A stretch of DNA of 58,291 nucleotides, filler included, from Sluysia triapertura (taxonomy: Eukaryota), in NCBI GenBank assembly GCA_046118255.1. It is 4 parts of 4 records of this genome, joined end to end, with 100 filler letters (N's around TTAATTAATTAA, not from the genome) between each part and the next. Parts side by side here need not be neighbours in the genome. Positions count along the whole stretch, not along the records: positions 42,077 to 58,291 come from JBJNIA010208480.1; 3 more parts are not named here. One strand, written 5' to 3'. Numbering within the stretch: the stretch's first letter is position 1; each line of letters opens with the position of its first letter. The notes below the pieces were generated by a model that was not told the DNA's origin, did no database searches, and worked only from the letters and a program-made list of their open reading frames with translations. Below, one piece after another: positions 4,001 through 57,880 of the stretch. The position numbers and the translations under genes are program-made.

Positions 4001-7000
4001 ATTTAGAATTCTTGTAGTTCTCACTCAAAATTGAATATTTCAATGTCGACTTAAGTTTAGACTTAAATCCAAAATTCTAGAGTTCAATAATTTATACTTA
4101 CTTCCTATACTTAAAATTGAGTTACAAATTGTGAAAATTGTATAGTTGTTATAATAAAACTTGATTATTATATGTTAAACAATTTCTTTCTAGTTATAAT
4201 ATGTAGAAATATATCTAAGGTAGATTGTTTTTATGTTTGTATAGAAATAGCTTTTTTGTTATTTTCGTGAAATATCTGTGATACTGTGACTTACTCACTG
4301 AAGGGCCAGCACATGGATTTGCAGCGTTGAGATATTAAAACTAGAGGTAAATATATACAATTAGTTCTGTGTAACTTTTTGCCACAATTAATATTATAAC
4401 AAATAACTTTTCGAGTAATTTTATTCACAAATTAAATATTGATGATACAATTAATCAAACGATATTAAACAGTAAATGTTAATTATTGATAGTATAATTG
4501 ACTACAGTAAAATCGAAATATATCAAAATGTCTATGATAAAATTGTTAGTATAATTATAATAAAACGAAATGATATTAAAAGAAAGTTTATTTAAGAAAA
4601 TTGTATTATTATGACTTTATATTCAATGTCAAAAATTTAAATATACAATCAATTAATATTCAGAGTCAAACAAAAATTCAATTAATACGTAATAAAAAAG
4701 AAAATTAAAATTTTAATCAATATTAATATATACTAATATTGAGGTAAAAATTTTTTCCTTTTATAACAGTTTATGTTGTACTAAATTTTTCAAAAGTTTA
4801 ATTAAAATCTAAGTGCATTTTATTAAATAATTAAATTTTTCTTAATAATGATGACAAAATTGCTTTTAATAAAATTTTCAATTCAAACAAATGATTCTTT
4901 TCAAATAATAGCTGCGTATTGGAAGAGAAATCTTTAGATACTAATTTCTTTAATTCAAAAATTTCTTCTTTAAATAATAATTTCGTTAATTCAAATAGTG
5001 ACTGTGTATTATAAAAGAATTGTGATTCTAATTTTAATCTACTTCTTGCTAAATTTAAAATATGAAACTTTACTGTTAAAACTTCTGACTTTGTAAACTC
5101 TATTTATGGATTTTTTAATGTCACAATCATAACTTTAAACAAATTTAATAATAATAAATTTTTAATAATATTATTTAATATAATAATAATAATTTTATTT
5201 TAATAAATGGTAAATTTTTTTCATCTTTAATTCATTAAAATTGCATAAAAATATATTAAAAATAATTTATAAAATTAAATACCTTCACACATTAAATATG
5301 AAATATTTTTAATACATAAGAATATATTACAGATAATTTATGAAATTAAAACCTTTACATTTTTGAATATTAAAATATTAGCATACTTTATTTATTAAAT
5401 CAGACATTACAGAAGCATTTTATTTACAATCATTGAATATTACGTTGTTGGTTTTCAACAAAATCCTATTTTTCAAGTACATATGTTTCCTAACTTTAAA
5501 TTTATAAATTTACTGTCATAAATCTTTTAATCTCTCTCTCTATATACAAATAATGTTGATATTACCAATATATTTTATTGTATATATTACAATTTCTGCT
5601 CAGTAATAATGTTATTCATTTTATGCATATATCCCCTGAACGTTTAAATAAGGATAAAAATAAGGGAGATTAAAAAACATAGTTTTAATTTACTGTACAC
5701 TTCAGTTTAAAATGACGCTAAATTATTAATTTTAACGTTCTGATATATAAGGACTAAAATTCATTTGTTAAATTAACCTAGTTAATACTATAAATCTAAT
5801 TTTTAGGGAGTTGTAAATTCAACACTAATCCAATAAGGAAGATATATTTTTCACAAACATATTTCAGCAGTTATTGTAGACATAAATCCTTGAGCTAGGT
5901 ACAATTTAATTTTCATAAATTACTTAATTGTATTGCATTTAAATCCTATCAACGAGCGCTTCATTGTGTTAAACTCGCATCACAAGCGAACTTTTTAATA
6001 AGTTTTTAAGACCAATTATGATTGTAGGTTTTACACAGATATTGTAAATATTATTGAAAATAAAATTGCATTACCTTACTTTACAATACCAAACATCAAA
6101 GGTACTTAGAAACACCTTTAAACAAGTAGGAAGTTAGAAATTAGCAAATATGTATGTCGAAAAAAGGCAAGATTCATTTACATTTAATTAGTTTCCAGAA
6201 AATATCACAAATCAAACGTATATGTCAATAAAATATGTAAAAGCTGTTAAGATTAACTAGGAAGGCAGATATAAATGAATCAAATGCATAGTTAGAATTA
6301 TTATAATACAGAGTAAAAGTATCCTACCAAAACGATAATGTATACTCTAATAAACTATTATAATATATATGGATTATTGTAGAATTAAATTCGTTGGAAA
6401 GTAAAATATTGATTAGAGAAAGCTGATTTTAAAGGTCTCATGTGATGAAACTTAAATAGTTATTGGTCATAATAATTCGTGAACAAGGAAAATGATATTC
6501 ATGTTTTAATAAAGATAAATTTTTTAAAGTTAATCTTTTGTCAATTTTGTAAAATTTCTAACCACTTTTATAAATCAAAGTAATAAAACAACAAATTATT
6601 TATTACACGTTTATATAATACAAATTTTTACGTAACAGTTACAATTCATTAGTTTTATGAAAGCATGAGTCATAAACCAATACATAATGATTATTTATTT
6701 TACTTTTACTTACATATACTCATTACGCTTATAATCATTCACACACTACACAAAAAATATAAATTTAATTTTTATTATTTCATGTATATATATTGATTTT
6801 TTAACATTACAATTAGCATTAAACTTGTAATTCCTAAATTATTTTAAATTTATAAAACGGAAACTTTTTTTCATATTTATACAATTATCACAATCCAATT
6901 AACAAAATTTATTTCATCTCATTTTAAATATATTTAATGAAAAAATTGTATATCAGTTTTAGATAACTGAATTTATGAGTCATTTATAATAAAAACAACG

Positions 7001-7255: not shown

Positions 7256-7471
7256 CAGAGCCGTAACTTGGCTGATGCAACTTGTGCACCCGCACAGGGC
7301 CCAGGTCTGAGGGGGTCCTTATAGGGCAGACGAATGAATACATGTGCTCCGCTCAAAATTTATGTATGTTGACGACATTCTTATAATCGTTTTCTAATCC
7401 ATGAATTTGCTGTTTGGGGTCCAGAATTTAATATGTTGAACAGGGCCTGTCAGTGGCTAGTTAAAGTACTG
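7256..7471. mobile_element. hAT-type MITE
   Basis: GC-rich insert with degenerate TIRs cagagccgtaact / agttaaagtactg and subterminal cagggcc motifs. 8-bp TSD atgaaaat (7248-7255) / atgtaaat (7472-7479). Confidence 0.75.
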
Positions 7472-10767: not shown

Positions 10768-10840
10768 TGGACTGACCGGGGATCGAACCCGGGACCATCG
10801 TCTGCGCAGTCCGACTGCTCTACCACTGAGCTATCAGCCC
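10768..10840 (-). tRNA. tRNA-like gene with Ala acceptor identity (G3:U70, A73) and non-canonical anticodon arm
   Basis: GGGCTGA TA GCTC AGTGGTA GAGC AGTCGGACTGCGCAGACGATGGTC CCGGG TTCGATC CCCGG TCAGTCC A followed by TTTT. Acceptor, D and T arms pair fully; the anticodon/variable region is one nt too long and mispaired. Confidence 0.85.
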
Positions 10841-13192
10841 TGTCTAACAATTTCATTTTCAATATATTCAATTATACTACTTGGCAATTTTATGCCTTTT
10901 ACCCCAACACATTGATGTTTTTGAATGAAAGTAAGGTTTGGATGTTAGAAGATTGTGACTTGAAAATGTATTGGATCTGAAGGAAATAAATTGTAGCCCA
11001 GGTTTTGGTGCATTCTAAAAGGTAGTTGTGCGATTTTGATAAATATGATTATGATTATATTGATATATAACTATGTTTTTAATGAATTTTTAAAATGTAC
11101 ATTATTAATTCTGAAAGTGAATATGGTTTTGATGTGATGATACAAAAAAAATTTGTAACAGTTATAGGTTGTACAATAGATTAATACAACTTTATTCTAA
11201 ATTAAATTCTTTCATTTACATTTACTTATCTTTTATTTTTATTGAGATTTTTTAATTTTTAAAATTTCCAAACAACAATAATCGTGGTTTTCGAAATGTA
11301 TGTATTTACTACAACTGTTCTTTATTATTTATTAATTGTTTTATTTGGAATTATAAAAGAGAAATGATTTGCAGAACTAAAATTATCCAAAGAGCATACT
11401 TTCAATAAAAGTTGTTTGGAAATGTGATAAAATTATTTTCTTCATAATCTTTTAGTGATTTGGCATTCATTGGTAGTTGAAACAGTACATAATCTGCACA
11501 TATTTTATATATTCTTTATATATCATTATTATATTTTAGAAATATTTGCAAGAAGCATTAACAATAATATATTTTATAATTTTAATATTTATAAATATAA
11601 TAATAATTTTCTCAAATAACCAATTTCTGATGATTTCAAAATAAATCAATACATTATAAATATTAATCGATAAATATATTTATCGACAACACTGACAAAA
11701 ATAGACAACATTTAAAACACACAACTGTACTTACATATTGACTCGAATTAGTTTTGAGGATTATACGTTATATCTAATTTTAGTAACTGAATTGATTTTA
11801 TGTTTGTCAATTACATCATTTGTTAGAAACATTATTTTCGTTATTATTTTAATATATGTAAATAATAATTTGTTTTAATAATGTTAAATTATTAAAAAAA
11901 AACTTAAGAATTACTTCGTTTTTGTACAGTAGCAGTCATTCACAATTTCTGGCTTTATTATTAATAATTAAATTTTAAAAATAGTAATAAGATGATTTAT
12001 TTAGTGACAGTTTGAAAAAATTAATTGCCATAACTAATAATATAGACTATAATAGACTCAATTTTATACAAAAAATTCAAAAATTATAATTATATCATCA
12101 GTCGACAAGAATAATTTTTCAATTAATAAATAACATGTGTAATATCTTATCTAAAAGAATTATATTGTTTACTGTTGAAAGAAATCCATAAATCTTTAAA
12201 TGTTTACGTTATGAAATAACTTTCATAACGTAAAATTATATTATAACGTAATATAACGTAAAATTATAACGTAATTCTGAAACCAAAATTAATATCAATT
12301 ATATCGAATAATATCAATTTTTATTTTCAAGAGATAATCAGAACTTCAAAAACATAAGCATTTATAGATCAATGTCTTAATTTTAAGTTCTATTTTGGTT
12401 TTTATTGGAAGTATTGTGTTACGCGACTGTTGAAATAATTTAAATAATATTATTTTGTTTTTGTTGGAATCATTCTACTCATTATAAACGCAAATCAAAA
12501 TGGTATAATATTAATATAAATAATAAATTATTAATAATAATTATTATTTAATTTTGACAATTTGTTTAAGTGGATTTAATAAATTTATGCATTTTTGATT
12601 TATCCTTTCAAGATTCTGCTTTCGATAAGAAATAAAAGAGTTATTGAAATATTCATATTGTATACTGAAGTCTGTAATTTAATACAAATTATTTAACTGT
12701 CACAATGTATTACTTTTTTCTTATTATATGTGCCAACACATTTCTAATCACTTGAATATTGTCGACTATTATTTTGTTAATAAATATCGTATGACAAGAC
12801 TGTACCAAGTAATTTTATGTGTGACATATGGGAATTTGCAAAGTATATTGTTAAATCTATATTGTTTTCATTTTTTAATTTCAAGAACTCAATAATAAAT
12901 ATAAATTTATAAATATATTACAAATTTGTTTATAATTTCCGCGAACTTAGGATTCACGGAACAACGTATATAGCATATTTTATTTACATATTATACAAAT
13001 CAATAACTTAAACGTCATTAAATTTTAAGGAGAATCCAAATATTCGGTTATGTTTTATTATAAGCAATGTCGTCAAGGATGAAATTTATAGAAAACAAGC
13101 AAGGTTGGAATTGTTATAATAATCAAAGTATGCCTCCACATTATCTAAACACATTTGCCACTTAAGCGGCAGGTTGTTCGAGCCAATGGTAT

Positions 13193-13857
13193 TGTTGTGT
13201 CTTTTATACTTTTTATTTTACAAATTATTAATAAAAACCCGATAATTAAACAACTTCAGAATCTCGATATATTCTTTGAATAATCAAAAATTACAATTTA
13301 ATAGATAACAATTATTCTTTATGACAACGACAATACAAACTACTCTTTATAACAAAATACACATTATTCTTTATAACAAAATTGCAAATTACTCTCTATA
13401 ACAACGTAAATTAATCTTTAAAAACAAGTTAAAAAGCCAGAGGTGACACAACTTAAATCTTTGCACCCGACTTAATGCAAAATATAATCAATACGAAACA
13501 GATCACTAACAGATCCTCTAACTCTAAATGTTTATATTAATCAGTTACTAAAGAATAAGCCCTGATATCACCGTTAACCACAGATGTATCAAGGCAGCGT
13601 CCTTCAGCTAGAAAGTTTTGATATTTCACTTTAATTCTTATCTCTGTCGATTTTTATTTCTAATTTTATGCAAAAATGTAACAGCTTATATAGCAGTTTT
13701 ATGATGCTGTTGGAAATTAAAATCAAGAATTGAACAAGAAGGAAATTAAATCCGTCTATTCTCTTTTAGTCGGCAATAAGCGACTAATTTTACTGATTGA
13801 ATTTCGGCAGTAATTTCCGTCTATGTTCAAATTCAATCTAATTTTAATTATCTAATG
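13193..13857 (-). mobile_element. Putative LTR (partial, cut by contig end)
   Basis: On the minus strand: TATA-like ctatataagc (~13684-13693), an aataaa-like signal near 13215 and terminal ...gacacaACA. Contains an internal ~25-bp minisatellite and shares acaagaaggaaatt with ~3598. Confidence 0.35.
13309..13428. repeat. Degenerate ~25-bp minisatellite (ttattctttataacaa core, ~5 units)
   Basis: Successive units ttattctttatgacaa / ctactctttataacaa / ttattctttataacaa / ttactctctataacaa / ttaatctttaaaaacaa. Confidence 0.7.
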
Positions 13858-13957
13858 NNNNNNNNNNNNNNNNNNNNNNNNNNNNNNNNNNNNNNNNNNN
13901 NTTAATTAATTAANNNNNNNNNNNNNNNNNNNNNNNNNNNNNNNNNNNNNNNNNNNN
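13858..13957. other. Artificial contig-joining linker N44-TTAATTAATTAA-N44
   Basis: Exactly 100 nt; the palindromic 12-mer gives stop codons in all six frames. Identical at three places in the window. Confidence 0.97.
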
Positions 13958-14556: not shown

Positions 14557-15182
14557 AAAACAATTTAGTTTAACATAGTTTAAAATAGCCTCTTCTTAAA
14601 ACATATTGTTATATATGATTGGAATGAAAATCTTGCCAGATAGAAAATAATATTTATTTAACCAGTAACGAAAACATGTAAATTGAGAAATATAAACAAA
14701 ACATCATCTTTAACCAATCATCTTTAAACATCATCTCCCATTTCTCTCATCATCAACGACGAAATTACCAACAATTATTCGCAGACAGTTTCTAACGAAA
14801 TTAATCTTCTTCTCAATTCCATCTTTCCACAAAAAATACGTCAGCTTTTTCAAGTTGCTCCGCTTAAACTCCGTCATGTGCCACAAAATAATATCTTTTA
14901 AATGATAGCTATCTGAAAAAATTATTTAATTATAAGTTAGAAATTAGACATTTAAAAAAGGATTTAATAATGCACTAAAACTAAACATTTCTTCATAAAA
15001 CATTGAAATTTTTCAGATTTACAGACGATTCATGTTTTGTTTCTATTTTCAACTTACATATTGTCTTTATTAATTAAATATTATTTTCTATCGCTCAAGA
15101 CTGTCGTTCCAATCCTATATAACAATGTTTTAAGAAGAGGCTATTTTTCAAATCCTGAAACTATGTTAAAATAAATTGTTTT
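14557..15182. mobile_element. Foldback/MITE-like element with ~100-bp inverted arms
   Basis: 14557-14656 (aaaacaatttagtttaacatagttt aaaatagcctcttcttaaaaca...gatagaaaataatattta) is the reverse complement of ~15075-15182. Confidence 0.75.
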
Positions 15183-24642: not shown

Positions 24643-24978
24643 ATGTCGATTATAAAACTAGCAAATCTTATTAATCTAAAGGAAAATAATTTATCAAATA
24701 CGATAATCATTATGGATAATGCACCTATACATAAATCACATCTTGTATCTGATATATGTGTCAAGAATAATCATGAAATAAATTTATTACACCGTATTAT
24801 CCACAACTTGATCCAATTAAAAAAGTATTTTAGAAATGGAAAAATATCATAAAATATGCATATTGTCAAACTTGATTGAAAATAATGCAATCAAGTTTGG
24901 ATATCAGTTGAGAAGATTGTAACTCAGATTTTAGACATATGTGCGAAAATTTAATCAGAGCAATTGACATTGAACCTT
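24643..24978 (+). mobile_element. IS630/Tc1 (DDE_3) transposase C-terminal remnant
   Basis: IIMDNAPIHKS, then frameshifted PYYPQLDPI..VF*KWKNIIK (cf. PPYSP.LNPIE..FS.WK). Confidence 0.8.
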
Positions 24979-25863: not shown

Positions 25864-25963
25864 NNNNNNNNNNNNNNNNNNNNNNNNNNNNNNNNNNNNN
25901 NNNNNNNTTAATTAATTAANNNNNNNNNNNNNNNNNNNNNNNNNNNNNNNNNNNNNNNNNNNN
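25864..25963. other. Artificial contig-joining linker
   Basis: N44-TTAATTAATTAA-N44. Confidence 0.97.
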
Positions 25964-26745
25964 TTTAATCAACTACACCAACGCTAAATCATTTCATTAT
26001 ACACTCACCGCAAAACCAACTACACCAATTTAATCACACTCCACATATACATATTTATCGTAATCATCACCAATAACAATATCACACTACATCAAGATTT
26101 ATTTCGTAATTATCACTAAAGATTAAGAATAACTAAAACCTTTTAACAAACATTTCAAATCTAATGCATAGACCTTGTTTTCAATTTACAAAATATAAAT
26201 AAATTTCAATAAAATTACCTTTAACACTTTCCATTTCACTCAACCATAATCTTTACACATTTTCAAAATAAATTTTAGACAACTTTAAAGATTTTGTTAT
26301 CTTACACTGTGAAGCAACAACTACAAATCATGCATTGTATATACTCATAGCCGTTGCTACTTCACAGTCTTTTATTCACTTTATGTATCTTTTATTTTAT
26401 TTTATCATTTTATATGTAAGAAGTGAAAAAGGTAAAAAGAACACTTAATGTAAAAGATTAAAGAAATTAAAGACTTTTATGCATATTTATTAGTTTTATA
26501 ATTATTATTATCATTTTTATTATTATAACTTTTATTATTATTATTATAATTATTATCATTAATGTTATTACCAAATTCATTATTTACACTATTAATTTTC
26601 ATTTAATTTTCGATAAATCAGTCTTTACCGCCATCAGCACATCTAAAATCATTTTAAAACGTCATTACTATGTCAGTGCTGATGACGACTGACCAATATT
26701 AAAATTTAAATCACATAAGCTGCCAGAAAAATCTAATTTACTATT

Positions 26746-26799
26746 ACCCAATCAGAGTGAACTCAACTCTATTTACACTCAAAATACTCTGATTGGGTA
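26746..26799. promoter_or_regulatory. Inverted pair of CCAAT boxes upstream of the 493-aa ORF
   Basis: tacccaatcagagt ... actctgattgggta, a perfect 14-bp inverted repeat. Confidence 0.5.
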
Positions 26800-27059
26800 G
26801 GCAGCATTTTAGTTAAAATTAGAAATAGTAATATTCACAATTTCATTGGACGACAAATCAAAGTGAGATTTTTACAATTTAATTTACAAACACAATTTTT
26901 CTGATAGACTCAATAATTTTCAACAAAAATTTAGTATAAGCACAGTTTAATCAACAATTTTTACAATTATACTAGACAGAATTGAGAAAACAAAATAAAA
27001 AGTGATTAATACAATATTACAGAAATTTAATATCAAAATTGGTTATCATTAGTCTTTTG

Positions 27060-28541
27060 ATGGATTTTCAACCTATAACAAACATGAATTATTTGAGTCG
27101 TGCGTTTCAAGATGATTCCTTCTCAGCTTATAGTAATTCCGATTCGTATATTGGAAACAATTTTAGTACATCTAAAACTGATGCTAATGCACAGTATGTT
27201 AATCAGCCGATCATTTCCAATGTAAAACAGAATTGCGTATATGTTTCTAACTCGTTTCCTGTAGATAAATCTTTCAATTTAAATACATCGAATTCATCAT
27301 CAGATGTACAATTCGGATCAAGCTTTTCATTCCATGACAAAGTATTAGCTCAACATAAAGTGAATGTTAAAATTTATGACGTGACCAATTTGAACAACGT
27401 TACAAGTGGTCGAGACGATTTCATTTCTATTAGTTCTAATCATTCGACTGATCCAGGAAGAAGAGAATTAATACAACAGCAATTGTCACTATTCCTTCAT
27501 GCGCATGAACTGATTGAAGCACAATGTCGTAAAGATTCTAACGAACTAATTAAAGAACAATTTTATAAAGATATTATTAATTTGATTAAAGCACAATGTC
27601 GTAAAGATTCTAACGAACTAATCAAAGAACAATTTTGTAAAGATACTATTGAAATGATCAAAAAACGATTCGTCAAGCATAAAGACTATGTACTTGGTAT
27701 GATGTTATTATATAATTACGCAATTATTACGACACAATCTGAATTGTGTAACGAGACTAACGTACCTCAAATTACTAACGGTCCGCGAGTATTTCATTTG
27801 TTCCTGCCATTTAATGTATTCATATGCAGATGTGATCACATTATAAACAATAGAGGTAATGTTTTAACATTAATTATTAACTACATCTATTATAACATGT
27901 ATTTATATATTATTTATCACAGTTTCGGAAAACTAACAATCAGTGAAACTGGAACATGGAACGAGTTGGAGTCTGCAGAAATCTTCCTAAAGCTATATAC
28001 GATTTTAAATAACATTTTCTTTTTAGGAATATTAATAAATAATCAATTTTGTTATCTTTATATATTTTACTGTGCTAAGATAAAATTAAAAATTATTCAT
28101 GATAATTCTTCGATCTTGATTTTTTTTAAACTTAAAGTTGTAGATGAAGTATTGATTACCACAACCAATATTAAAGAGATAGATATCAAACAAAGTTTCA
28201 ATACCTCAGTCCTCAAAATAAATTGTAATCTAACGGTTATATTTCAGAGAATTTTAAAAATAATAAATTCTGTATCTTCCGAAAATAATATAAGTCAAGT
28301 GAGAATTAACTACAATACCATTAGATCTTCTATTTTTAAATATTTTGAACATTGTAAACAATTTTGTAAGAATACTGTTGATCATAAAATCAAACATATT
28401 TTTAAGTTAACCATGTCCTTAAAGGATCATGCAAGAGTTCATAGATGTCATACCTTCGTTCATAAGATATTAGTACATATTATCAACAAAAATGAATATA
28501 CATTTTCAAAATTCAAAATGTATAATTTATACTTTGTATAA
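27060..28541 (+). CDS. Intronless 493-aa hypothetical protein containing the first helix of a CBP/p300 TAZ1 domain and a 24-aa tandem duplication
   Basis: A 1.5-kb open frame is unlikely by chance at this AT content. DPGRRELIQQQLSLFLHAH resembles CBP DPEKRKLIQQQLVLLLHAH. A 72-bp repeat starts at 27511 and 27583. Confidence 0.7.
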   Translation: MDFQPITNMNYLSRAFQDDSFSAYSNSDSYIGNNFSTSKTDANAQYVNQPIISNVKQNCVYVSNSFPVDKSFNLNTSNSSSDVQFGSSFSFHDKVLAQHKVNVKIYDVTNLNNVTSGRDDFISISSNHSTDPGRRELIQQQLSLFLHAHELIEAQCRKDSNELIKEQFYKDIINLIKAQCRKDSNELIKEQFCKDTIEMIKKRFVKHKDYVLGMMLLYNYAIITTQSELCNETNVPQITNGPRVFHLFLPFNVFICRCDHIINNRGNVLTLIINYIYYNMYLYIIYHSFGKLTISETGTWNELESAEIFLKLYTILNNIFFLGILINNQFCYLYIFYCAKIKLKIIHDNSSILIFFKLKVVDEVLITTTNIKEIDIKQSFNTSVLKINCNLTVIFQRILKIINSVSSENNISQVRINYNTIRSSIFKYFEHCKQFCKNTVDHKIKHIFKLTMSLKDHARVHRCHTFVHKILVHIINKNEYTFSKFKMYNLYFV

Positions 28542-28608: not shown

Positions 28609-29706
28609 TCAACTTTTTCCCCCATATATGTTGTAATCGCAGAATGTAAGGTGTTCTCGTAGTGGTTTTGATCGATGGGAGAACCAAACATCTTCATGTT
28701 TTATGATGCTGCTCAACGTCTTTATTGGTGAACGTTGGCAGATTGTAATAAATTTTTGTAACTGACAGACTACGCACTTAACTTGGATTGTAATCCTGTC
28801 GTTGCAATCATATATTGTGTATTCTGGAGTACTGTTTATTTGTTTGGGATTTGTTATTTTCAGGATTTGTCTGCCTGCAGATTTATTATTGGATAACGTC
28901 TGTGATGTAGTGTTGTCGACTGTTTCTGAAGGCTGGGCCTTTTTCTGATGTTTATTGTTGTTTTTTGCTTTTCGGTCATTGCTCTGGTTGTTGTGGTCCG
29001 ACTTGTCTTTATTTATTTTGGCGGGAGTCTTTATATAACATGTTTGATTGCGACCAGATGTAGTATTGTAGTTGGGTTTGAAACGTTGTTTGATATCGTC
29101 AGTGATTGTTTCGTTTTGATTAACTAAATTGGATCTATTTTGATACTGCGTGTGTATGGTGCTGTGGTTTGTAGGTTTGGTTGTATTGTTTGGCATTTTG
29201 CCTCCGTTGCCAATTTGTCCTCAAGTTGTGGTGCGCTTTTTGCCGGTTCGAGTTCGACCCTATTGGGCTTATAGTCGTACCTGATATACCCATTTTACAT
29301 ATTTGGACATAGGTTTTATTAGGGGTGGACAGATATTTCGAGGGTGTCCATTTATATTGCGGGGGTAGTTGAGGCGATAGTTCGCTCTGGGACGGCGCTC
29401 CTAGACGTGCGAACCCGGTAATTTTAAATTCTTGTTGGGGTTTAACTTTTAGGCGCTCCGGAGTGAAAGATCTGGAACATGTGGTGGTAAAACCGTAACC
29501 TAGAATTTTGTTTGATTTTGGCAAAGGGTTTTTGTAAGTTATTAGTGGATGTTTATTATGTTTATTACGTGAATGTTTATTCAGTATTGTGGATGATGAG
29601 GTGTTGCTTGTTGGATGTCTTTGTGTGGGGTATGTGTTTGTTTTGCTTGAAGGAATTTGTCGTCCAAACTGGTTACCACCCTTACCAACGATGACAGCTT
29701 ATTCAT
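28609..29706 (-). pseudogene. Frameshifted gene: low-complexity N/Q/T/K region plus C-terminal ubiquitin-like domain
   Basis: Overlapping ORFs 29135-29524 and 28609-29196. ITIQVKCV...FSHRSKPLREHLTFCDYNI resembles ubiquitin MQIFVK...LIFAGKQLEDGRTLSDYNI. Confidence 0.55.
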
Positions 29707-29784
29707 ATTTTCATCATGCTGTCAACGTTGATGATGGTTGATAACCAGTCATCAACATTTTATTTGACATTAATTTTGCTAGTA

Positions 29785-29844
29785 CTCCACCCAATCAAGT
29801 CGTCATCATTTTAATTCATTATTTGTTAATATGATTGGGTGGAG
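29785..29844. promoter_or_regulatory. Inverted pair of CCAAT boxes upstream of the UBL gene
   Basis: ctccacccaatca ... tgattgggtggag, a perfect 13-bp inverted repeat; further ccaat/attgg motifs to ~29930. Confidence 0.5.
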
Positions 29845-32800
29845 CTAAAAATAGCAATGCAGAGTTTCCAATGGTCATTTTTTCAATTGGAGCTAAAAAT
29901 AATCAGCAGCAATTTAGTACTTCTCATTGGCTGGCTATTATTTTGAAGGTGCTATTGAAGGTGCTATTATTTTTCTTTTGCACTTTTGTCTAATAATATT
30001 TTTATTATAATTTATTGTTAATTTAACAAAAATTTCATTTTTCAGAAATTATTGAATCAAATTATTACATTTTTTGTATATTTTAAAATAGTCAAATATT
30101 GGAAGTTTTTAGTATATGATACTTTTCTCACGATTAATTCTAATGAAAATTCAATTTCAAATATTATAATTTTTCTTATGCGATTTTTAAATAGATTTAG
30201 AATAGAATATGATGTTAGAGATGAAACATTCCTCAGAATGAATCTGTGAAGGATTCTAGAGCAATTCGAAATATTATTAGAGATATCAGTGATTTTGAAA
30301 ATTGTTCTCAATCAGATAAAAGTATGTTTTGGAAAAGTGATGATTATAATTGTTGCATGTTAAATAATGAAGTTAAATGCTACAAATTTCTTGATGTACA
30401 AGATTAATTAAAACATTATAATGAATGTTCTCAAAGTCTATTACTGAATTTCCATGTTTCTTTTTTCAAAATTTTCAAACAAAAAGTTATCGAGCAAAAT
30501 GTGTAAAGTCCATTGCACATTTGAAAACAATTGTTAAACGAGTAATCACATACGCAACACTAAAAACATCGTGTAACATTAAATTAATCAATCATAGTAA
30601 GATTCCTATGTCAACAGCCTCTAAGATTAGTGAAAATTTTAAATTTGAATTTACGTAAATTAAAGACAATAAGAGTATATTTTTGTGATGTTTTGCAAGA
30701 AAAGACAAGTATTTTAATGAAATAAGCATTTAGACGGGTCATAGTGTCAGTTATATAACATGATACGGTTATATTTTATTTAGAGTTGTTTAAATTATTG
30801 AGCTTTAGTATAAACACATTTGATAATATCGAAGAATTGGCAACTAAGTTGTTCATCGTGGTGCAAGAAAATCGCTTAGAAAATATATAAAAACCCATAT
30901 TGCTGATTGCCGAAACTTCACTTTGTATGTTGGAAATGGTTTCTTACAAATAAAAACAGTAGTGTTTGTTATTTTATCTTGTCAATTCGTGTAATGTTTT
31001 GGTGTTTTGTTGTTTGATTTATATGTTTTAATAGTTCATGAATTTAAGTATTATAAATCTTTTAAATTTAAATACAACTTTAATTTTTACGAAAACTTTC
31101 ATAAATTTAATAATGTTTATCATAAAATGTTTTATATAAAAATTAATAAAGAACAAAAGATAAAAACATTAACCTTACCACAACCATTTAAAATAATAAT
31201 ATTTAAAACGAAAAATAATAATATAAAAAGACAATTAATAAAATATTTTAAATGATCGCTTTAAAATAATACTAACATTAATACTGGAACGAGATATATT
31301 TCTCTTCTCTCATTCGACGAGAAGTAGTGTATACAATTGAAAATTTTTTGGTATTACAGCAAATATTGTTATTTTAGATATTTTATTGTTATCTTGGTTT
31401 TATATGTTATTGATTCTAATCGAGATTTTTTAAGTTTAATGTGTCTTAAAGAAACCACATTATTTCACTTAAAATCTTTTAATTGGAGTTTATTTTCCGA
31501 TTTAATGAAGGTTAAATTTTCTTAATTAAAATGATTTTAATTAGTTCTATTTTGTTTTTTGTTTTGTTCAGCTGTGGTGATATTAATTACATTAATAATT
31601 AACACAAACCTTTGTTACTTAAATATTTTTGTGATTTATTCGTAAATTTTAAGTCGTGCTGGGCTTAAGCAAATAGAAAAAAGATTAAAAGACCCTTTAA
31701 GATATATTGTACAATTTTATAAATTAAAGTCATAGATACAGACACGCACACAACATGTTTTAAGCCTTGTATTACAGCCTAACCTATTGATTAGTTTATT
31801 TTGCTTGAGTGATCTGATAAGACGACAGCAAATATAATATTTTGTTATTTAATCCAAACTAAACAATTTTATCTCTAACTCATGTTTGAAGTTCATTTAA
31901 TTAGATAAATTTACTTCGGGTATCTTTCTGATGTCTTCAGCCAATAATAATAATCCTAAAATATGACAAAGATCAGCATCCATGTTATTTCGGCTATGTA
32001 GAATTTTAAATTTTAAGAAACGTGTCTGGAATATCAACGTTTATCGATGTATTCGCATTTGTTTAAAGTGTTATCATTTTGATTTTCCTGTTTTTTCTAA
32101 TTATAGAAAAAGTTTCGTTAAATTTTTTGAACTAACAAAAGTAGAGACGAAAATTATTCAAGATCATTTTGATTAATTTATAAAATGTTGTGAAAGTGTT
32201 AGATGTATTTTATTGCCCTAAGGATGAGAAGTTCAGTAATTCTACTTTTTATATTACTGCAGTATACGACACGTTTCCAACAGTAACTATTACAAAATTT
32301 AAGTGTTGCTGTAGCCATGCTATTACTAATAATTTTAGATATAACAGACAAGATATTGAAATAAATAAACTTTTAAACGATTATTCTAATTTCTCACAAT
32401 TTCTTTAATAATTAAAAAATATTAACAATTAATAAAGACATTAAACAGGAAAGTGATTAATGATTAATAAATATAAGTCAAGATTTATTAATTTCGATTG
32501 TTTGATGATTTTAAAACTATCTTCTCTAAAAGAAAATATTTTGTTGCATAATTCCAGGCTTCTTTAGTTGACTATGTTATGTTTATATTTCTTGTTTTAA
32601 ACCGCGAATAAGGAGTTTAATCCAATAACAAAAGAATTTCAATATTAGCCTTTCGGATTAGTTCAGATTTAACCAAGATTCGATATAACATTTTTATCTT
32701 TAAAAGTTTCATTGTTTTATTTATAGGTCAAATATAAATCAATAGTGCCAATTATTCAAAAACTGAAATCAATTTTTCCACTTATCGTTTCAATCTGTAA

Positions 32801-33960: not shown

Positions 33961-34487
33961 ATTGTTTATAAGTCTATTTTCTATTAACGAAAAAATAATT
34001 TACTACTTAACAAACATTACATCATAACATAGGTTAATTCAGATATAATAAATTTATTAACATTCTGATAACCAATTGTAAAGGAAATAATCTAATTTAT
34101 AAGTTGTATGATAAATCAATGTGTATAATTAATCGTGATTTGTAAAACATAATATTTTAGTTGAATAACTAATTCATAATCTGTAATACCTTTGTGTTAG
34201 ACTGAACGTGTATATTTATAATTAATTTTAATTTATATTTCTGTGTTTTAGTACCTTTCGCGCTATTATATCTGTAAGAATATAGTAAATAAAAAATTTC
34301 AATACTTAAACTAAAATATTCCGAGAAAAATCCTATAGTAACGTCTTTTTACTACAAAATATACTACAAAATAGGTGAAGCCGTGTTAGAAGACAATTTT
34401 GCATATAGGAATTAAGTAATAAAATAAAAACATGACAATTATGATAAAATATATTACACAATTGAATAATAATTGAATAGGAATGGA

Positions 34488-39199: not shown

Positions 39200-40600
39200 A
39201 ATTATATATTAAAATCCTTGTAAATTCACTTAACAGGTACAATACTGTTACGCCTTAAATCAATAATAACAATAATCCAATATTAATTTAATGCACTTCA
39301 ATAAAACCTCAAATGATTTCAATATTCACTAAATCAAATACAACTTATCACCAATTTTCTTATCCTATTAATGATATTTATTCAACTCAAAAATTATTTA
39401 CTATTTTCACATTAAAAAACTCAAAGTCAACAATAGTTCTGTTTATTATGGATTTTAAGCAGGCATAATATGTTCAAAAAATAGAGGTGACGCAACAGCA
39501 TCTATATATCTAAATATCTATACCCATAAAGTTAACAACAATAATAATTATTATTATATATTTTCGAACAGCCTTAGCAGAAAAATTACAAAATAATCCG
39601 TACAGGGATTTTCCCAAAAATAAAATTATTTAATTAAATTAAAATAAATTTATAATTAGAAATACTTCAAAAGAAATCGGGCAGGAAGCGTTCCCAAAAA
39701 CTCAGATTTATTTGGCGATATCTTAAAAAATAACTGTACTGGTAAAAATTAACTGAATATTTTACACAAAAGTTATTTACTTCATAAATCTTGTTAATGA
39801 TAAAAATAATAAAATAATAATAATAAACATTATAATAATAAAGAAAAATCATGGATTTTATGTTTTCATCATCACTACACGCTATGATCGATTGTGTTTT
39901 TTATTTTTTAAATATTCGCTTTTATATCTCTGTATCGTCTAATCAATTTCAAATAAATTCACTATCATGAATTACTCTTACACAAATTATCAAAACCTCT
40001 TTTAAACATTAAACCGACTAAAATCACTTTGGCATTTACATGGTACCACCTATCAAGCAAAACATAACAATTAGATTAACAATCAACTCACATTTTTTTC
40101 TTCTATTCTACTAGATCTATTTTTTCATGAATCACTTCTTATAAAAAATAACAATTATTATTATTGACATACTAAATAATGATGAATTTAACTTTAGTTT
40201 TTACTTTTTAATTAATTTTCAATTCCTCACACTCAATTTTTTAATGAAAAATGTTTAAGATTCTCACTCCCAAACCAACCATTTCACAAATATTTCAACC
40301 TTATTTTCGAATCCTCCTATTTCATAGCAATCACTCCATACCCAACTCATTATATCTTCATCATTCTAAATATGAAAATTTCATCATTTTAAATTAAAAA
40401 TTAATTAAAATTCGACTTTGTTCAATATGGAAGCTTTCCTCGCATGAATTTGGTCAAACATCATCTTCATCGGAAGTTCTCTTTAAAACACATACATGTA
40501 CTGTTACAATGTTAACATAGCATTCCTCATTCAAAAGTTATTCACACAAAGGTAATTTTTCTTAATTAAGTTAATTAAGATTTTAATTAATTAATTAATT
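39200..40600 (-). repeat. ~1.3-kb dispersed repeat, inverted copy of 56665-57880
   Basis: Shared terminus ttaattaattaaaa(a)tcttaattaacttaattaagaaaaa.tac.ttt.tgtgaataact, followed by colinear blocks (cgatgaag...gtttgacc...ttcat, aaggcg.aaca). Confidence 0.85.
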
Positions 40601-41619
40601 ATTTTAACTTATTTTATTCTAAGTTGAAAGGTTTTATTATAAAGTTATTTAATACTTTATAAGGTACTCAGGAGGCCCTAGATATTTTCACCTTCGCCAC
40701 TCTGATTCATTTTTCTACTTTTTTATTTTAATTATTAATGTATCAAATTTATCTTTAACATTGTCAATCATGATTTTAATTCTTGAACATTTCAAAGGTT
40801 CCAAACATTTTACAAGGTTACTCGAAGGTTCCAGAAGTCTTCATAAGGGTCTCAATACCCTACAAAAGTATCTGGAACTCCAATGTGTTCTTCGGTTTCA
40901 AAATGATTACAAACATTTTACTGTTCATTGCTCTTGCTCTAGAAATATTTAATTATGTTTATATTATCATATTTCATATATTTTATATCATTTTTTCTTA
41001 TGTATATTTTATTTTAAATTGCATTAAAATAATTATATTTAAATAATTAAAAAATTATATTTTAAAATTTATATTAAAAGAAATTTGTTTTGATCAATTA
41101 TTTCATCTGCCCTATTGGAATTGATATTATAAAGATCATCAAAATTATTGGAATTAAAACAAATTTACAACTACAATTTTTAATCAACCAAAAAGATATA
41201 TTTTTAGAAGATCCATACATACAAAATAATTTGTGTTATTAGGTTTCCCACTGGTCATTTTTATTTTATAATTCTTATAAAAACATAATTTGTTCATAAT
41301 TAAAAAATCTAATGTTACAAATTATAATCTTTTTAATAGATTAAAAAATTTAAAGTTCACAAAGTCCTCCATAATTCGTATTAATAATTCATTTACAAAG
41401 ACTGCGCTTAATTACTAAGCGTTTTAATTTGTTACTGTGTGACTAATTTAATTATGTAAATTTTCGAGTGATGAAGCACTATTTTTTATGATCTTAAAGG
41501 TCATTTGATTTGTTAAGTGCACTTTGCACTTAATTATTAGTAATATGTATATTTTTTTCCACCTATAATTATTAACAAGGCATCCAGGCCTTTAAAATGC
41601 ATTTTATTAATTTTATTTG

Positions 41620-41646
41620 GATTATTGTTATTATTATTATTATTAC

Positions 41647-41692
<46 letters not shown>
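41620..41692. repeat. (ATT)n microsatellite
   Basis: Direct reading. Confidence 0.95.
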
Positions 41693-41902
41693 TTAAATTA
41701 ATTGATATTATTACCATTATTATATTATTTACATTATTGTTATGAAATAATTTTTGTTATTATTTCGATATTATTATTAAAAATTATTATCATTATAAAC
41801 TTAATGATATTAAACCCTTACGTTAGTTTTATTTTCCCACAATTTGTATATTTATATTCGGTTTCTTTCTACACAAACAATTATAAAAAAGAATTTTAGA
41901 AA

Positions 41903-41976
41903 GCTGGGTCCGCCTACGTTAAACGATTTATCTTACCTAGAAGGACGTTTACGTAGGATTTAAAGCTGTCAAAAGC
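41903..41976. repeat. Fragment of the structured repeat family at contig end
   Basis: gggtccg-cctacg..cgtagg-atttaaag is homologous to 42662-42721 gagttcg-cctaac..gttagg-atttaaag. Confidence 0.7.
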
Positions 41977-42076
41977 NNNNNNNNNNNNNNNNNNNNNNNN
42001 NNNNNNNNNNNNNNNNNNNNTTAATTAATTAANNNNNNNNNNNNNNNNNNNNNNNNNNNNNNNNNNNNNNNNNNNN
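41977..42076. other. Artificial contig-joining linker
   Basis: N44-TTAATTAATTAA-N44. Confidence 0.97.
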
Positions 42077-45000
42077 CATCAAGACTAAGGACTCTTTCGC
42101 AGTACTGACATAGTATTTCCTATAACTAAGTCTTCCGAGAGATATAAATCTTAGATTATAGGCGAACCCAGTAAAATAATTATAATTGTTCATTAAGATA
42201 AAATAAAAAATACTGAACAAATATAACTATTCCGATAGGTATGATCATGACTTTTTAAATTTTTTTAATATTTCAACTATCCAAATAATATATATATTTT
42301 TCTAATGCTAATGCCGACCATTTTTAATTAATTTTTTTATTGATAAACTTAACTTTTATTTTTCTAAACGTAATTATTTAAGGATTAATTCAAGTTTGTT
42401 TAAAACTAAACGTATTAGGATCGGTTAAATGATCGCTTTTAGTTTTTATTTAAAAAAATACTTTGAAATTGTATTGATGGATTTGTAGAGATGTGAAGGT
42501 GTTAGAAAAAATGAAATAATAATAAAATTATAAATATTGTTTAAGTTTTGTAGAAAATTATTTAATTAATTTTTGTAAAATTTCATCTTTTATTTAATTC
42601 ATGTGTGAGAATATGCAAAGGTGTTTTCACCTAACTTACGATGAAAATAGTAATCTGGATAGAGTTCGCCTAACAGAAAACGACTTAAGTCTGAATGACG
42701 GCGGTCTGTTAGGATTTAAAGAGAAAGTTTGACTTAGGAAGAGTCACGTAAAGACTGTCTACTTAAAAGAAGGAGTACGTACGAAGAATATGAAGAGTAT
42801 ATGAACACTTTTATTATATATATTTTAGATGATTTTTAGTTAGCCTTTTTACGATCTAACTTCAGTAAATAAAATATTAAATTAGCCGGTTACGGTCTAA
42901 TTGTGGAAAAATTGTTATAGTATCTTAGTATGTTAAGCTAGCCTTATTACAGTCTAGCGTTAAATGATTTTAGTTCTTTATAGCGAATCGGTAAGACTCA
43001 AACAACTACTTGTAAGGTGTATTATCAAAAACATAAAAAGTATACAATCACGATAAAGATTTTAAATACTTTAATCAGGATTAGATTTAGTATTGTAGAT
43101 TTTGGTGAGAATTTAACTTATCCTTCTTGCGGTATAAGTTAAAAAATTTCGTTAATTATTTTGAGTAAAATTTTACTTCTCCCAGTTACGGTGAGAAGGT
43201 TCAAAACCTATACAAAATAATTGTTGATTGATTAAGTGAATATTTTCTCGCAAATGGCTTTCTAAAAATTCTACCAAACCTGTTGGTATATATATAGAAT
43301 TTTCAGTAGCCATCTTGCATGTTTATTGGTTTTAAAAATTTAATTTACTTAAACAAAATCTAAAAATTTAATTTATTTAAACAAAGTAAAATTTAGTATG
43401 AAATTTTAATTTTAATTTTGATTCTATTTATTTTAAAACTTTAATTTATTATTTTATTATAATATAAATAAATATTATTTATCAATAAAATAACTATTAT
43501 ATAATAATTATAAAATAAAATAAAATGACTTCAAAATTCAGTCAATTTCAATTAATTGTTCTCAATTAATTATTAAACACTTCGATTAATTGCTGTTAAG
43601 CACCGTTACGCAGCGTCACGCCGCATCCTGAATAATTTTAAAAGATAAAATAGAATAAGATTTTAACATGAGTCCACCAACGTACTAGGCTTCCCAGTTA
43701 GGGCTAGCCGTTGGATTTGTAGATAAATGATTTTAAAGGGTAGAAAAAATTTATAAAGTGTAGTTTTTGATAGGGTATTCTTTGCTTAATAACTTGACTA
43801 TTAATTTTAATTTTAATTCTGAAGGTATTTCAAAACTTTTAATGATAATAAATTTATGAGCGTATGGTTAACTGAAAAAATCAAAATTAGTTTGTGAAGT
43901 ATTTTACGATAATCCTATGAAAATGATCTATTAAAATGATTTTACGAGATTAGATTTAAATTCTAATAGTAGAAAACGTACTCTACTATAGATTTTATAT
44001 TTGAAACTATGAAATCTTTTAAAGAATAATGAACGATTACTTAAAATTTTATTAAATACAAAAAATAATAAAGGAATTTATAATGGAAGAAAATATATGG
44101 TAGTTTACCAGGAATTAAATGAAATTAATCCCTGAGTCAATAATATTTTAATGGAGATTTTACATCAGATGTATTATAAGATCTGTTAAATTATTATTAT
44201 TTTAACTTAATATATTAAAACAATAAAAATTAACTTTTTAATTTTAAAAATTTTTAACTTAATATATCAAAATTAATTTAAGATACTAAAATTAACTTTT
44301 AAAAATTTATAATTACTTACGTTCCAATATTAAAAAAATTCAATTATAATTCAATTAAAATATCCAAAATAAATTTCAAATATAGTTGAAATAAATAAAA
44401 ATCAATAAATTAAGACACACAAAGTTATAATAGTATTAATATGACACTAAATCATGATTAGTTATGTGAATATAATGTACACACAATTCTGTACACATAT
44501 ATTATCTAATATTAAATTAGAATTTGTTAAATAGAAATAATTATTATGTTGGGTGTTTTTCTTAATCTAAAAACCTAAACTACAGCAAAATAATTAATTA
44601 TTATGAGTCCGTTTACAGTATACGACTTACTAACGGCGTACCTGTAAAATTACGTGAAAGCAATTATCAGAATTAATTCGTATAAAAAATATTCTTTGCC
44701 TTAACTTAACAATAATGGGCAAAATCGTCGTTTATATCAAGTAACAATAAATAACTTAAAAACTAATTAAGACATATATAGATATACGAATTAATTAATA
44801 ACTGCCAGAACCTTTTTAATTTCTATTTATTTTATAAATGATATTAGAATTAATGTTCTTGCAACGAAAAATATATTCAAATTTAAGTTACAAAGTGAGT
44901 ATTAATACAATTATAGTGAAAAGAACACAAATTTTGAGAACTTTCTAGTAATTTTTATTAAACCAAAATATATCAAAAATAAAACTAATATAAATTTACA

Positions 45001-45821
45001 AAAAATATACGATGAGCGAATATTTATAATAGAAAAAACATTAGAAATGACAAATTTGATAAATGATAAAAATAATGACGATAATAATTGAAATATAATA
45101 AGGGTCTAGCCCAGAAGACTCTACAATATCTATTTTATAATTGACCTTTAAATGGATTTTGTGATTGGCCTTAATGACCAACCATGAAAAATAGTATTTT
45201 ACGTTTAAATATTAACTCAACGAGTGAGTGTTCAGCTATGTAAAATTAACTTACGGATTAATCAATAATAAAAATTGGAGCTCGGCTGATGGAAGTAATT
45301 TGTTGAAGAGTGACTTGATCTGTGGTGATGTTGACGTTTGGAGATCGCTATCCCTCTAATCGTAGGCGCGGGATTTAAGCGATAATGTATAAATTGAATC
45401 GCAGAGTTGATAGAAGGTACCACAAGCTGATGATGAATTCGCACAATAACCAAAATGGAGTCTTCTGATTTATAATAATCTTTATTTGGAACAATGGTGA
45501 TCTTCTTTGTTTATAATTTAATTGTGATTGCACTTGGCCTTCTAATTTTTCATGATGGCGATTGTTTTATTTGTGACTGTCTTTACATAGTCATAGAGAC
45601 ATTTTTGAAATTTGATACATTTAAATAAACTTCTTTCTAGAAGTTTCTTTTTATGTCTTTTTAAATTTATAATAATAATAATTTTAATTTTATTATAATT
45701 ATATTAATAATATTTTAAAATATATAAATTTTAATAATTTTATAATATTTTTTAAAATTACACAAACATAAAAAAATCAAAAACATGAAATATAAAATAC
45801 AAAATTATATTCACATTTACA
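42077..45821 (-). mobile_element. Non-coding, highly structured repeat element of at least 3.7 kb (candidate LARD-like retroelement or large structured RNA)
   Basis: No credible ORF; many hairpins and long-range stems separated by AT-rich spacers. The right ~1.2 kb is homologous to 1-1013. It may be a composite of more than one copy. Confidence 0.6.
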
Positions 45822-47141
45822 GTATATTTGTCACTAGTAATTGTATCATCATCCATATTTTTGTTTTTACATCACTTTTAGAAATGGGAACATGTTTTAT
45901 AATAAATCTTTGTTCAGTTATGTTGTTTTGTTCTTATTATATACATACTACCTTTATTTGAATTACTTATTAAATTTCAGAGATGCATTTAATTATAAGG
46001 AATGCAAAGATATAATTGCTTTAACTGTGAAATATGGAATTATTGGCTTTAATATAGTCATAGAATACAGTAAATTTAATTTGACATTACTGATGTCCAT
46101 CGTGATACAATATGATAGCATTATACGATTTGTGTAATAATTATGTTACAAACGCTGCTTGCATTCCTTCAATTATATCTTAGGTGCTGGTGTGACTAAA
46201 TATAAAAAGCATTATTTGATATTCGAGAATGTTATAATTATTTTGATTTTAATGATTTAAGTAACGCAACTTTAAGATGTTTTACAAAAAGACGAAAACC
46301 TTCTCCATCACACATGATGTACTTATCGTTTTTAATTCCTTTACACAATCCTATTACTTATGAGTCCGTTTATATTGATAGAAAACGTTATTTTGTTTCA
46401 AACAGAAAATAATGTAGTTGTATTGTAATTGTATCACAATACAGTTTTAAGTTAGTTTATGTTTTACTTTTTTTTTGTTCTTTTTTGTGCTAGTGAATAA
46501 AAAAGTTTTTGTTTATTTGGATAAATTCCTTAATCTTTGTTAAAGCCTAAAGTTATGATTAAGTTAATGGTTAAATTTTTTAAAAAAATTAATAGAATTT
46601 TGGTTAAATTAATTTTTTTAAAGTTAAAGAAAAGTTAAAATTGTATAACTTTCTTAAATATAATAAAAATATAAAGCCCTCTCTAAAATATATATAACAT
46701 TCATCTATTTGGACCATTTATTTAAATGTTACGCATAACTAACATTCGTACACTAATATTTGAACACATAAAATATAAATATTTTAAATTAAATTTATAA
46801 ACATTTTACAATTTATAAATAATTTACTAAAAAATATATAAAAAATAAATGATATTATCATAAAATAAGAATGAAATATTAATTATAAAAAATAATTAGT
46901 TTTATTTTTGAATTTTTAGATAGTTTAAATGGTTAAAAAATTGAACATTTCAAAAAGGTCTTTATTTAAAATTTTTTAGGAAAATTTATTTTTCAAGTTT
47001 TGATTAAGTAAAATATTTTAATTTTATATTCATGTTTAAAACATATCAAAAATATATTTACGTAATTTTGTTAGAAAAGATTTTTATTATTTATAAAGTT
47101 TTAGATTAATTAAATATTTACTATTTCAATCTAATTATATT

Positions 47142-56003: not shown

Positions 56004-56650
56004 TCCAGGGTCGTTTTGTGGACTGCTTTATGAAAACGCCTTATCTGTAGTCCATTTTCCCTACAACTAAATAATCAGACTTTGATCTTTTCTGTTAAAG
56101 CCAGAAATAATATTCTCAAACTCACTTTCTGCCCTCAAAATATTAGGCTTCATCTTCCTATCACTTGTCTCTGATGCGGCTTTGAACGTGAAACGATTAC
56201 CCTATCTTTTGTCTGTGACCTCACAATTTTACAATGAGACGTAATGATAAGACAATGAGACATAATAAGATACTAGAATATCTCTCTAGTACAAAAGGGC
56301 TTTTCAGTTAAGAAAGACACACAAACTCCTCTTACTGATGATTACCGAAGACCCGACATTCAGGCAAAGGGCACAAATTCATCCCAACTTTTTCTCATTG
56401 ATGTCAAATCACCCATCGATGAATATGACAAATTAGAGCGGCCAGGTCTCTTAATATTGCTGTGTACTCTGATCTTAGGGAGAAACTCCAATCGGAACTT
56501 AAATGTCAGGTTTCCCTTTATAACTGTGTAGTTGGTTCATGGGATCGCGAAAATGACATTGTCTTAAAAAAGTTAAGTTTCCGCAAATCTGATATCACTG
56601 ATATCAAGCTGTCTTTGGAGTCGCCTTTTAACATTTACAAGGATAAGATT
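56004..56650 (+). mobile_element. 3' fragment of RLE-type non-LTR retrotransposon (NeSL/Utopia/R2-like), degenerate
   Basis: QGRF...FSVKARNNIL, then CCHC knuckle remnant TCL*CGFERETITYLL, then MRHNKILEYL, then the restriction-like endonuclease RRPDI...LIDVKSPIDE...YSDL...VVGSWDRENDIVLKKL. Confidence 0.85.
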
Positions 56651-56664
56651 AAGTTTAAAAAAAG

Positions 56665-57880
56665 ATTAATTAATTAAAAATCTTAATTAACTTAATTAAG
56701 AAAAAGTACGTTTTTGTGAATAACTCTTGAATGCATAATACTATGTTGAATTTGAAACTGTGTATGTATTTGTTTTGAAAATACCTTTCGATGAAGCCAT
56801 GGTTTGACCGAGTTCATACAAGAAAAGCCTTAATATTGAGTAAATCAAATTTAATTAATTTTTAATTATGGAATGTTGAATTTTTTATACTTAGTGTGAT
56901 GCGAGTGTAATGAATGGAACATGAGATGATTGCTATGTAAGAGGAGAATTTATAAGGAGTTCGAAATATTTCTAAAGTGGTTCGTTTGAGAATAAGAACC
57001 TTAAAACATTTTTCATTAGAAAATTTGGTGTGAAAAACCAAAAATCAATTAAACTCTGAAAACTAAAATTAAATTCATTATTATTTTATGTATGTTAACA
57101 ATAATGATTATTATATTAATGTGAGAATTAATTTAAGTAAAAGTTGATTGAGTAGAGTAAAGGAAAATAATAGATAATCGTAAATCAATTTTTTGTGTTT
57201 TGTATCTAATAAAGTTTGAAAGTATATACAATGTAACTATAAAAGTTATTATTGCCAGATTAATTCTCAAAGAATGTTGCAGTGATTTGTATGAAAGAAT
57301 GTTTAATAAAAAATTTGGAAATGATTGGATGATGAGAAAATATAAAAAGGAATACCAAAAAATTTTACCTCACAACACAACAGTAATAAGAACAATTAAT
57401 AATGCAAATGAGAAGATCAATCCTTTAAGTAATTTTTGAATTTTATAATTAACAATAATATTATTTTTCAGGGATTTTATCAAAATAGTACTTGGCTTTG
57501 TGTTATTTTTTGGAAATTTATATTTGATTATTATTAAGAAATAATCGTGAATAATTAATATTTTTCTTAGTGTTTGTTGCTTCACATCTTTAGATAGATT
57601 GTTATATCATTGATACTATTATTAACGTTATTGTAATCTCGTCATTTTACTCATTTTTAGTAATTTTTAGTGGAGATTTATAATAATAATAATAATAATT
57701 TGTATTTGATTTTCCTTTAACCAGTAAATTATTGTGTTGTTGTTGATTTGATTTTCAATAGCTTAATTTTTGGGTGAATAATTATTATTATCAAAGTAAG
57801 AGAATTACTGAATTACATTGATATTGATTTAGCGTAATTAATAATTTTCAAAGGCGCAACATAATTTTTGGTTCTCCCGG
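56665..57880 (+). repeat. ~1.2-kb dispersed repeat (copy of 39200-40600)
   Basis: See 39200-40600; it directly abuts and truncates the RLE retrotransposon. Confidence 0.85.

Follow-up and report, generated by a model that had tools for sequence, protein, structure and literature searches.

The 58,291-nt stretch of Sluysia triapertura DNA analysed here, referred to as the window, carries a hairpin array that is both real and undescribed. The minus strand at 42838-43198 holds five hairpins that share one architecture, consisting of a stem, a bulged A, two pyrimidines (YY), a GYAA loop, GG and the returning arm of the stem. An earlier note had reported five such hairpins on this strand, and we found all of them in place, with stems longer than it gave in 4/5. 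Three have 6-bp stems and the bulged A: hp1 (42838-42861; UC/GG upper pairs, GUAAAAA loop), hp2 (42880-42902; CC/GG, GUAACC loop) and hp5 (43176-43198; CC/GG, GUAACU loop). The stem of hp4 (43112-43143) is 10 bp long and is followed by the bulged A, CC/GG and a GCAAGAA loop. The remaining hairpin, hp3 (42937-42958), has a 5-bp stem, then A, CU, GUAAUAA and GG, and its upper register is ambiguous. All outer pairs of the five hairpins are Watson-Crick (33/33), with no G-U among them. In hp2 and hp5 the upper stem can gain a third pair, which leaves a UAAC tetraloop. When a covariance model was built without hp2, it recovered hp2 (E = 0.01). The sixth, unbulged variant that had been proposed at 42624-42647 on the minus strand (hp6) does keep the array core, with its A paired to a U and an 8-nt loop, but it is weak in context, with a pair probability of about 0.34. 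Possible decayed hairpin cores, identified partly by eye, also occur between hp4 and hp3 on the minus strand, at 43048-43054 and about 42992.

We searched both strands of the 58-kb window with the shared pattern and a stem of at least 3 bp, and only the five array sites matched. Shuffling dinucleotides across the whole window (n = 200) gave a mean of 0.105 and a maximum of 1 match, and local shuffling (n = 5000) also gave a maximum of 1; the motif is far more frequent than in dinucleotide-shuffled sequence. Because this pattern was set post hoc, on data already seen, we added a generic control accepting any 5'-side bulged base followed by 2 bp and a 6-7-nt loop on a stem of at least 5 bp, which gave 6 minus-strand matches against a mean of 0.24 and a maximum of 3 in 1000 shuffles. 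The core alone (A-YY-GYAA-N1-4-GG) occurs at 11 sites in the window, where the five array sites have 5-10-bp stems and the other 6 have 0-1 pair. The exact AYYGYAA core is present six times in 661 nt, with an expectation of 0.7.

Matched change in the stems was assessed by comparing each 5' arm with its own 3' arm: 29/30 positions pair, a value reached by 1/120 arm permutations (permutation mean 16.6). This upholds the claim that the stems differ in sequence yet always pair, but the accompanying argument against a simple tandem duplication needs rewording, since the hairpins do stem from duplication, followed by matched change. Both hp4 and hp5 sit in tandem units of ~60 nt with similar flanks (71% identity), and they differ by one C-G to A-U swap plus the loss of one whole pair. 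Among hp1-hp3, TAG/CTA is common to all, with double changes at the next two positions. Independent events are few: a by-eye count over five paralogues at one locus gives roughly three double changes plus a single paired indel. The array arose through local duplication and then compensatory stem change.

The array lies between two copies (B3 and B6) of a larger covarying motif that we call module B. This motif consists of a 7-bp and a 5-bp stem with a bulged A on the 3' side, an inner loop of the form YCY..WAARY and a tail reading YGRACYC, and the window holds five full and two partial copies in both orientations. The full copies are B1 (41906-41957, minus), which lies across the N-linker from the array, so that linkage is not assured; B2 (42119-42169, plus), oriented opposite to the array and near the contig join; B3 (42662-42713, minus), partly decayed and situated between hp1 and hp6; B6 (43670-43714, minus), upstream of the array; and B4 (44605-44648, minus). 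The partial copies are B5 (plus), which together with a terminal block spans 1-77, with the module B part at 1-29, and is cut by the window edge, and B4b (46360-46388, minus), a degenerate and weak module B tail (E = 0.87). Weak further candidates lie at 5941-5995 and 34328-34384 (E about 3). Copies on the same strand are spaced by 1008, 935 and 1757 nt, and the stretches between copies bear no likeness to one another.

Across four module B copies, 8/12 pairs are changed on both sides and 92% of cells are paired. No shuffle of 500 scored as high, and slid controls were 18-47% paired; these controls are inflated, as the structure was read from the same sequences that were tested, and related sequences can outdo the shuffle control without any structure. 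A model of the four copies found a fifth, B6, outside its training set (E = 0.0008). Bulge position, inner loop and tail are kept across copies at a mean column identity of 61%, and G-U pairs favour the minus strand as the structured strand at B3, B4 and B6. The apical loop of B6 matches hp5 at 11/12 bases, which suggests that module B and the array hairpins share ancestry. Rfam holds no match for module B.

A terminal block of ~50 nt follows B3, B4 and B5. Next to B4 it follows on the minus strand and ends at 44547, and a further copy of the block lies at 1190-1241 (plus; 80% identical to 29-77). After module B, hp6 occupies the terminal-block position and resembles the remaining blocks modestly (best 11 of 2971 background scores). 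The block is predicted to fold better on the strand opposite to module B than on the same strand, at -5.8 versus -3.3 kcal/mol for B4, -10.4 versus -6.0 for B5 and -7.6 versus -1.5 for the copy at 1190. Four copies have a common end starting with TG, on the strand opposite to module B. We found no matching second end, paired terminal repeats or target-site duplication for this family in the window, and by eye no Helitron-like CTRR end after module B. Like dispersed mobile repeats, module B copies face both ways and have a downstream block in common, and the diverged copies scattered in both orientations over 58 kb are what a mobile element would leave. Together, array and module B look like a dispersed structured repeat family, which supports the proposal that the array belongs to an undescribed element.

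As minus-strand RNA, the 396-nt array core folds with z = -2.80 (2/100 shuffles as good), against z = -0.71 for the plus strand (19/100). Over a wider 661 nt the strands are alike, at z = -2.58 and -2.32 with only 20 shuffles. The upper two pairs have probabilities of 0.95-0.99 in hp2, hp4 and hp5 as minus-strand RNA (0.97 in hp5). Those of hp1 reach 0.70 as minus-strand RNA and 0.05 or less on the plus strand, and those of hp6 reach 0.34 on the minus strand and are lost on the plus strand. In hp3 the shared form of the upper 2-bp register has a probability of 0.12-0.13, with CU pairing with AG instead. The wobbles of the upper stem had been offered as evidence for a minus-strand RNA. Folding energies do prefer that strand, but the wobble argument is weak alone, as it comes down to three changes, all on the pyrimidine side (3/3; one-sided p = 0.125). 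The predicted folds of the core favour the minus strand, and the folded strand may be RNA.

We compared the array with known structured elements. Retrozymes and other non-autonomous structured retroelements are non-coding dispersed repeats that conserve structure. The present family resembles retrozymes in having a conserved motif at roughly 1-kb spacing and differs from them in lacking a hammerhead or other Rfam ribozyme and in the unlike stretches between module B copies. The single-stranded DNA hairpins of IS200/IS605, REP and Helitron type are imperfect, with an extrahelical base and variable stems, and occur as one hairpin per end; we found no TnpA, TnpB, Fanzor or Rep ORF around the module B copies. 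Several further candidates were dropped by eye, without Rfam backing. Comparison with consensus motifs led us to drop hammerhead, HDV-like, twister, pistol and hairpin ribozymes and Sola2, Harbinger and hAT termini. By eye, we likewise set aside RNase P, telomerase template, SECIS, group II domain VI and the rRNA decoding site, together with attC, tRNA anticodon arms, the pol III B-box and 5' splice-site microexons.

The MS2 operator has a 4-nt A-U-C/U-A loop, in which the first and last A are important, on a stem of free sequence (PMC13720505). As in the array, the free-sequence stem is followed by a single 5'-side bulged A, two pairs and then the loop, and the CC/GG orientation occurs among wild-type-like variants (PMC13720505). 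A bulged A of this style is predicted in hp1, hp2, hp4 and hp5 (pair probabilities 0.70-0.99) and not in hp3 (0.13) or hp6. The MS2-like geometry that had been claimed thus holds for four hairpins, with the A two pairs below the loop, but the loops depart from it: they are 6-7 nt long with G first and G-Y-A-A fixed, and show no A-N-Y-A tetraloop of the MS2 kind (PMC13720505). The array also differs in comprising five natural copies in eukaryote nuclear DNA, with no coat or replicase ORF found. We rejected identity with the MS2 operator on the 6-7-nt, G-first loop; the tetraloop possible in hp2 and hp5, UAAC, is not of the A-N-Y-A form either. The encapsidation signal of the yeast L-A and M RNAs is a stem-loop with a protruding A that is present once or twice per non-autonomous RNA and is read by the helper protein (PMC5666360). 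According to a figure legend there, it also shares with the array a GC pair near the loop beside the protruding A (PMC5666360). The L-A/M helper-satellite system is the closest functional analogue of the mechanism that we propose below. It belongs to a dsRNA virus of yeasts, whereas the hairpins here are chromosomal and number five or six, and our searches turned up no helper Gag-Pol.

The packaging role suggested earlier, and the Gag- or capsid-encoding partner that was to carry the same array, found no backing in the ORFs. We compared ORFs of at least 38 aa around the module B copies with Pfam, using 67 of the 77 listed after excluding 10 of low complexity, and 0/67 matched Gag, capsid, RT, Rep or TnpB; no ORF near the array or among the window ORFs scanned is of the partner kind, and no Gag, capsid or RT gene was among the ORFs nearby. 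The same families were absent among longer ORFs scanned with Pfam elsewhere in the window. No RuvC nuclease gene or remnant, such as would accompany a Fanzor or TnpB omega RNA, appeared among the 67 ORFs by Pfam, a test that nuclease-free copies would escape. Upstream of the array we identified no minus-strand host gene, and the region has no Pfam-matching ORF. We noticed just two mobile-element proteins in the window, a DDE_3 fragment at 24640 and, at 56277-57202, what we take to be a LINE tail with a restriction-like endonuclease motif and no Pfam match. An inverted copy (76%) of the 3' region of this LINE lies at 40058-40620.

Relatives of the array were sought in sequence collections and in the literature. 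At gathering score, Rfam matched nothing in the whole window but one tRNA, and it gave no match in 40000-46000 at E up to 10. In viral contigs, the single-hairpin pattern gave 99 loci, with two hairpins in 0/99, and the two-hairpin pattern gave 0. A double-core pattern gave at least 120 loci, and among the matches listed 10/120 had one stem and 0 had two. A first search of viral contigs for module B patterns gave 0, another gave 46 loci, with 1 folding like module B, and the terminal block gave 0. When the module B model was run on 29 of these 46 viral loci and on the loci L100-L102, it returned 0 matches. Metagenomes yielded 2 matches and prokaryote genomes 1; L101 and L102 carry a single hairpin each and no array. 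L100, a non-coding metagenome contig, carries RYCGYA 11 times on one strand within 370 nt (at 360-745), several of these repeats lying in hairpin-like units that resemble hp1. Two of its units scored E about 0.002 with the array model, although L100 was picked by pattern and a rough chance expectation for the scan is a few matches; blast detected no similarity between this contig and the array. The L100 core cluster may be a product of chance. Searches of phages and plasmids with blastn gave short matches only (E = 0.09 or worse), and a search for bacterial terminators gave 0. Among the matches listed from the viral, metagenome, prokaryote, phage and plasmid collections, none was a second array with two intact stems, and our searches of open-licence papers brought up no description of such a hairpin array in animal dispersed repeats.

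The window has a GC content of 20-33% in 2-kb bins, and the array lies in the part that starts at 42077. Spacers of 100 nt at 13858-13957, 25864-25963 and 41977-42076 consist of 12 bases with 44 N on either side, have stop codons in all frames, look artificial and are probably contig linkers. Above the Pfam cut-off we found a PSMD5-like ORF and a PP2C fragment, and below it RA-like and RhoGAP-like ORFs; protein and profile-library searches returned no relatives of the RA-like ORF or the PP2C fragment, which points to a divergent or unannotated lineage. The arrangement of RA-like and RhoGAP-like ORFs, together with a CBP TAZ1-like motif that has no Pfam support, suggests an animal host. The context of the array is chromosomal, with PSMD5, PP2C and RhoGAP-like genes and no viral ORF found. 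An ORF of 511 codons at 27006-28541 has a 72-nt internal repeat and no Pfam match, and a stretch before the repeat resembles the start of CBP/p300 TAZ1. On the minus strand at 10768-10840, ARAGORN predicted a tRNA Arg with anticodon GCG, which is odd for a eukaryote (Rfam score 50.3). Also on this strand, 13546-13615 forms a very stable hairpin (-27.1 kcal/mol; z = -5.4 with 15 shuffles), with no Rfam match at gathering score. A dispersed non-coding repeat occurs at 229-561 and 44949-45272 (70% identical), with several hairpins apparently kept in both copies. Long near-perfect inverted repeats are present at 26741-26810, 29681-29855, 12181-12250 and 24851-24920, an inverted-repeat pair typical of a MITE at 14557-14704 and 15032-15182 and, by eye, a short hAT-like element at 7259-7450.

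Some of this evidence bears on readings other than docking sites on a mobile-element RNA. A DNA-transposition enzyme, of HUH or Y1 type or a folded-substrate recombinase, could recognise the hairpins as single-stranded DNA or as cruciforms. In favour of DNA, no outer pair is G-U (33/33 Watson-Crick), which suits DNA or folding of both strands no less well than RNA, and under DNA parameters the outer stems are predicted on either strand (0.66-0.96). Parts of the repeat family prefer opposite strands, and most plus-strand loops end in TTAC, resembling some HUH nick or target sites. Against this, hp1, hp3 and hp6 mostly lose their upper stem and bulge under DNA parameters (0.11 or less, minus strand), Pfam found no transposase or Rep ORF nearby, and a Helitron-like CTRR end was missing by eye; we regard recognition as DNA as rather unlikely. 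Unlikely too, in our view, is that the array belongs to a non-coding RNA or UTR of the host and serves to sponge or recruit one of its RNA-binding proteins, in the manner of clustered iron-responsive elements or CsrB. Such a role would fit the one-strand bias (z = -2.80 versus -0.71), the single occurrence of the array in the window and a strong hairpin, unique in the window, just upstream of the array at 43253-43313 on the minus strand (-22.7 kcal/mol versus -16.9 on the plus strand). It sits poorly with an array placed among dispersed module B copies of both orientations, with no Rfam match and with no minus-strand host gene found upstream.

The matched stems might instead be functionless, the neutral outcome of duplication and palindrome correction by template switching. 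Template-switch correction yields perfect Watson-Crick stems, and those of the array have no wobbles; the hairpins are duplicates, and the window has further perfect inverted repeats. Under such correction, however, the bulge would tend to vanish, yet the A is unpaired in 5/5 hairpins, and the G-Y-A-A..GG letters are constant while adjacent loop bases and spacers drift. Module B, too, retains the place of its bulge, the inner loop and the tail at the 61% mean column identity, and we consider a neutral origin distinctly unlikely. Least probable of all, and very improbable, is an endogenised viral packaging signal of MS2 or totivirus type. A bulged A on the 5' side, two pairs from the loop, fits MS2 geometry, and a protruding A is also found, once or twice per RNA, in the signals of L-A and M dsRNA, but the MS2 tetraloop rule fails, no coat, Gag or RdRp remnant occurs among the ORFs scanned with Pfam, and no array was seen among the matches listed from viral, phage and plasmid searches.

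Our tentative preference is for protein docking on the RNA that a non-autonomous mobile element would produce, a plausible reading in which we hold limited confidence. The five hairpins would be duplicated, compensatorily conserved stem-loops in a single member of a dispersed family of non-coding repeats, serving as repeated docking sites on its minus-strand transcript. A protein would read the fixed bulged A and the G-Y-A-A letters, with the stem as a sequence-free scaffold, and multiple copies would give greater avidity. The docking protein would come from elsewhere in the genome, where an autonomous partner would encode it as an RT, a Gag-like protein or a transposase. Because MS2 and L-A signals are also read by a fixed bulge and loop on a variable stem, protein docking would be the likeliest function by analogy. 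In favour of a mobile element, the array region lacks Pfam-matching ORFs and is adjoined by other repeats. Against a mobile-element RNA, one array is known, in one locus, the ORFs scanned gave no partner protein, the terminal block folds better on the other strand, and the upper stem of hp3 is not predicted in the shared register. More speculatively, and improbable as a whole, module B may be a new RNA motif, acting in self-processing or as a boundary, and may delimit RNA units of roughly 0.9-1.0 kb, of which the unit at 42662-43670 would carry an MS2-style array loading it multivalently onto a helper protein; these would be hammerhead-free, retrozyme-like non-autonomous RNA elements in an animal genome.

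Hairpin arrays with free stems and a fixed bulge and loop are the design of MS2 tags and of viral packaging signals. If the neutral reading is true, the array would serve as a warning that duplicated palindromes can mimic covariation. The two covariance models built here, for the array hairpin and for module B, allow a search for the autonomous partner, and finding it would reveal a new specificity in the binding of RNA or single-stranded DNA, and perhaps a mobile element of a new class.
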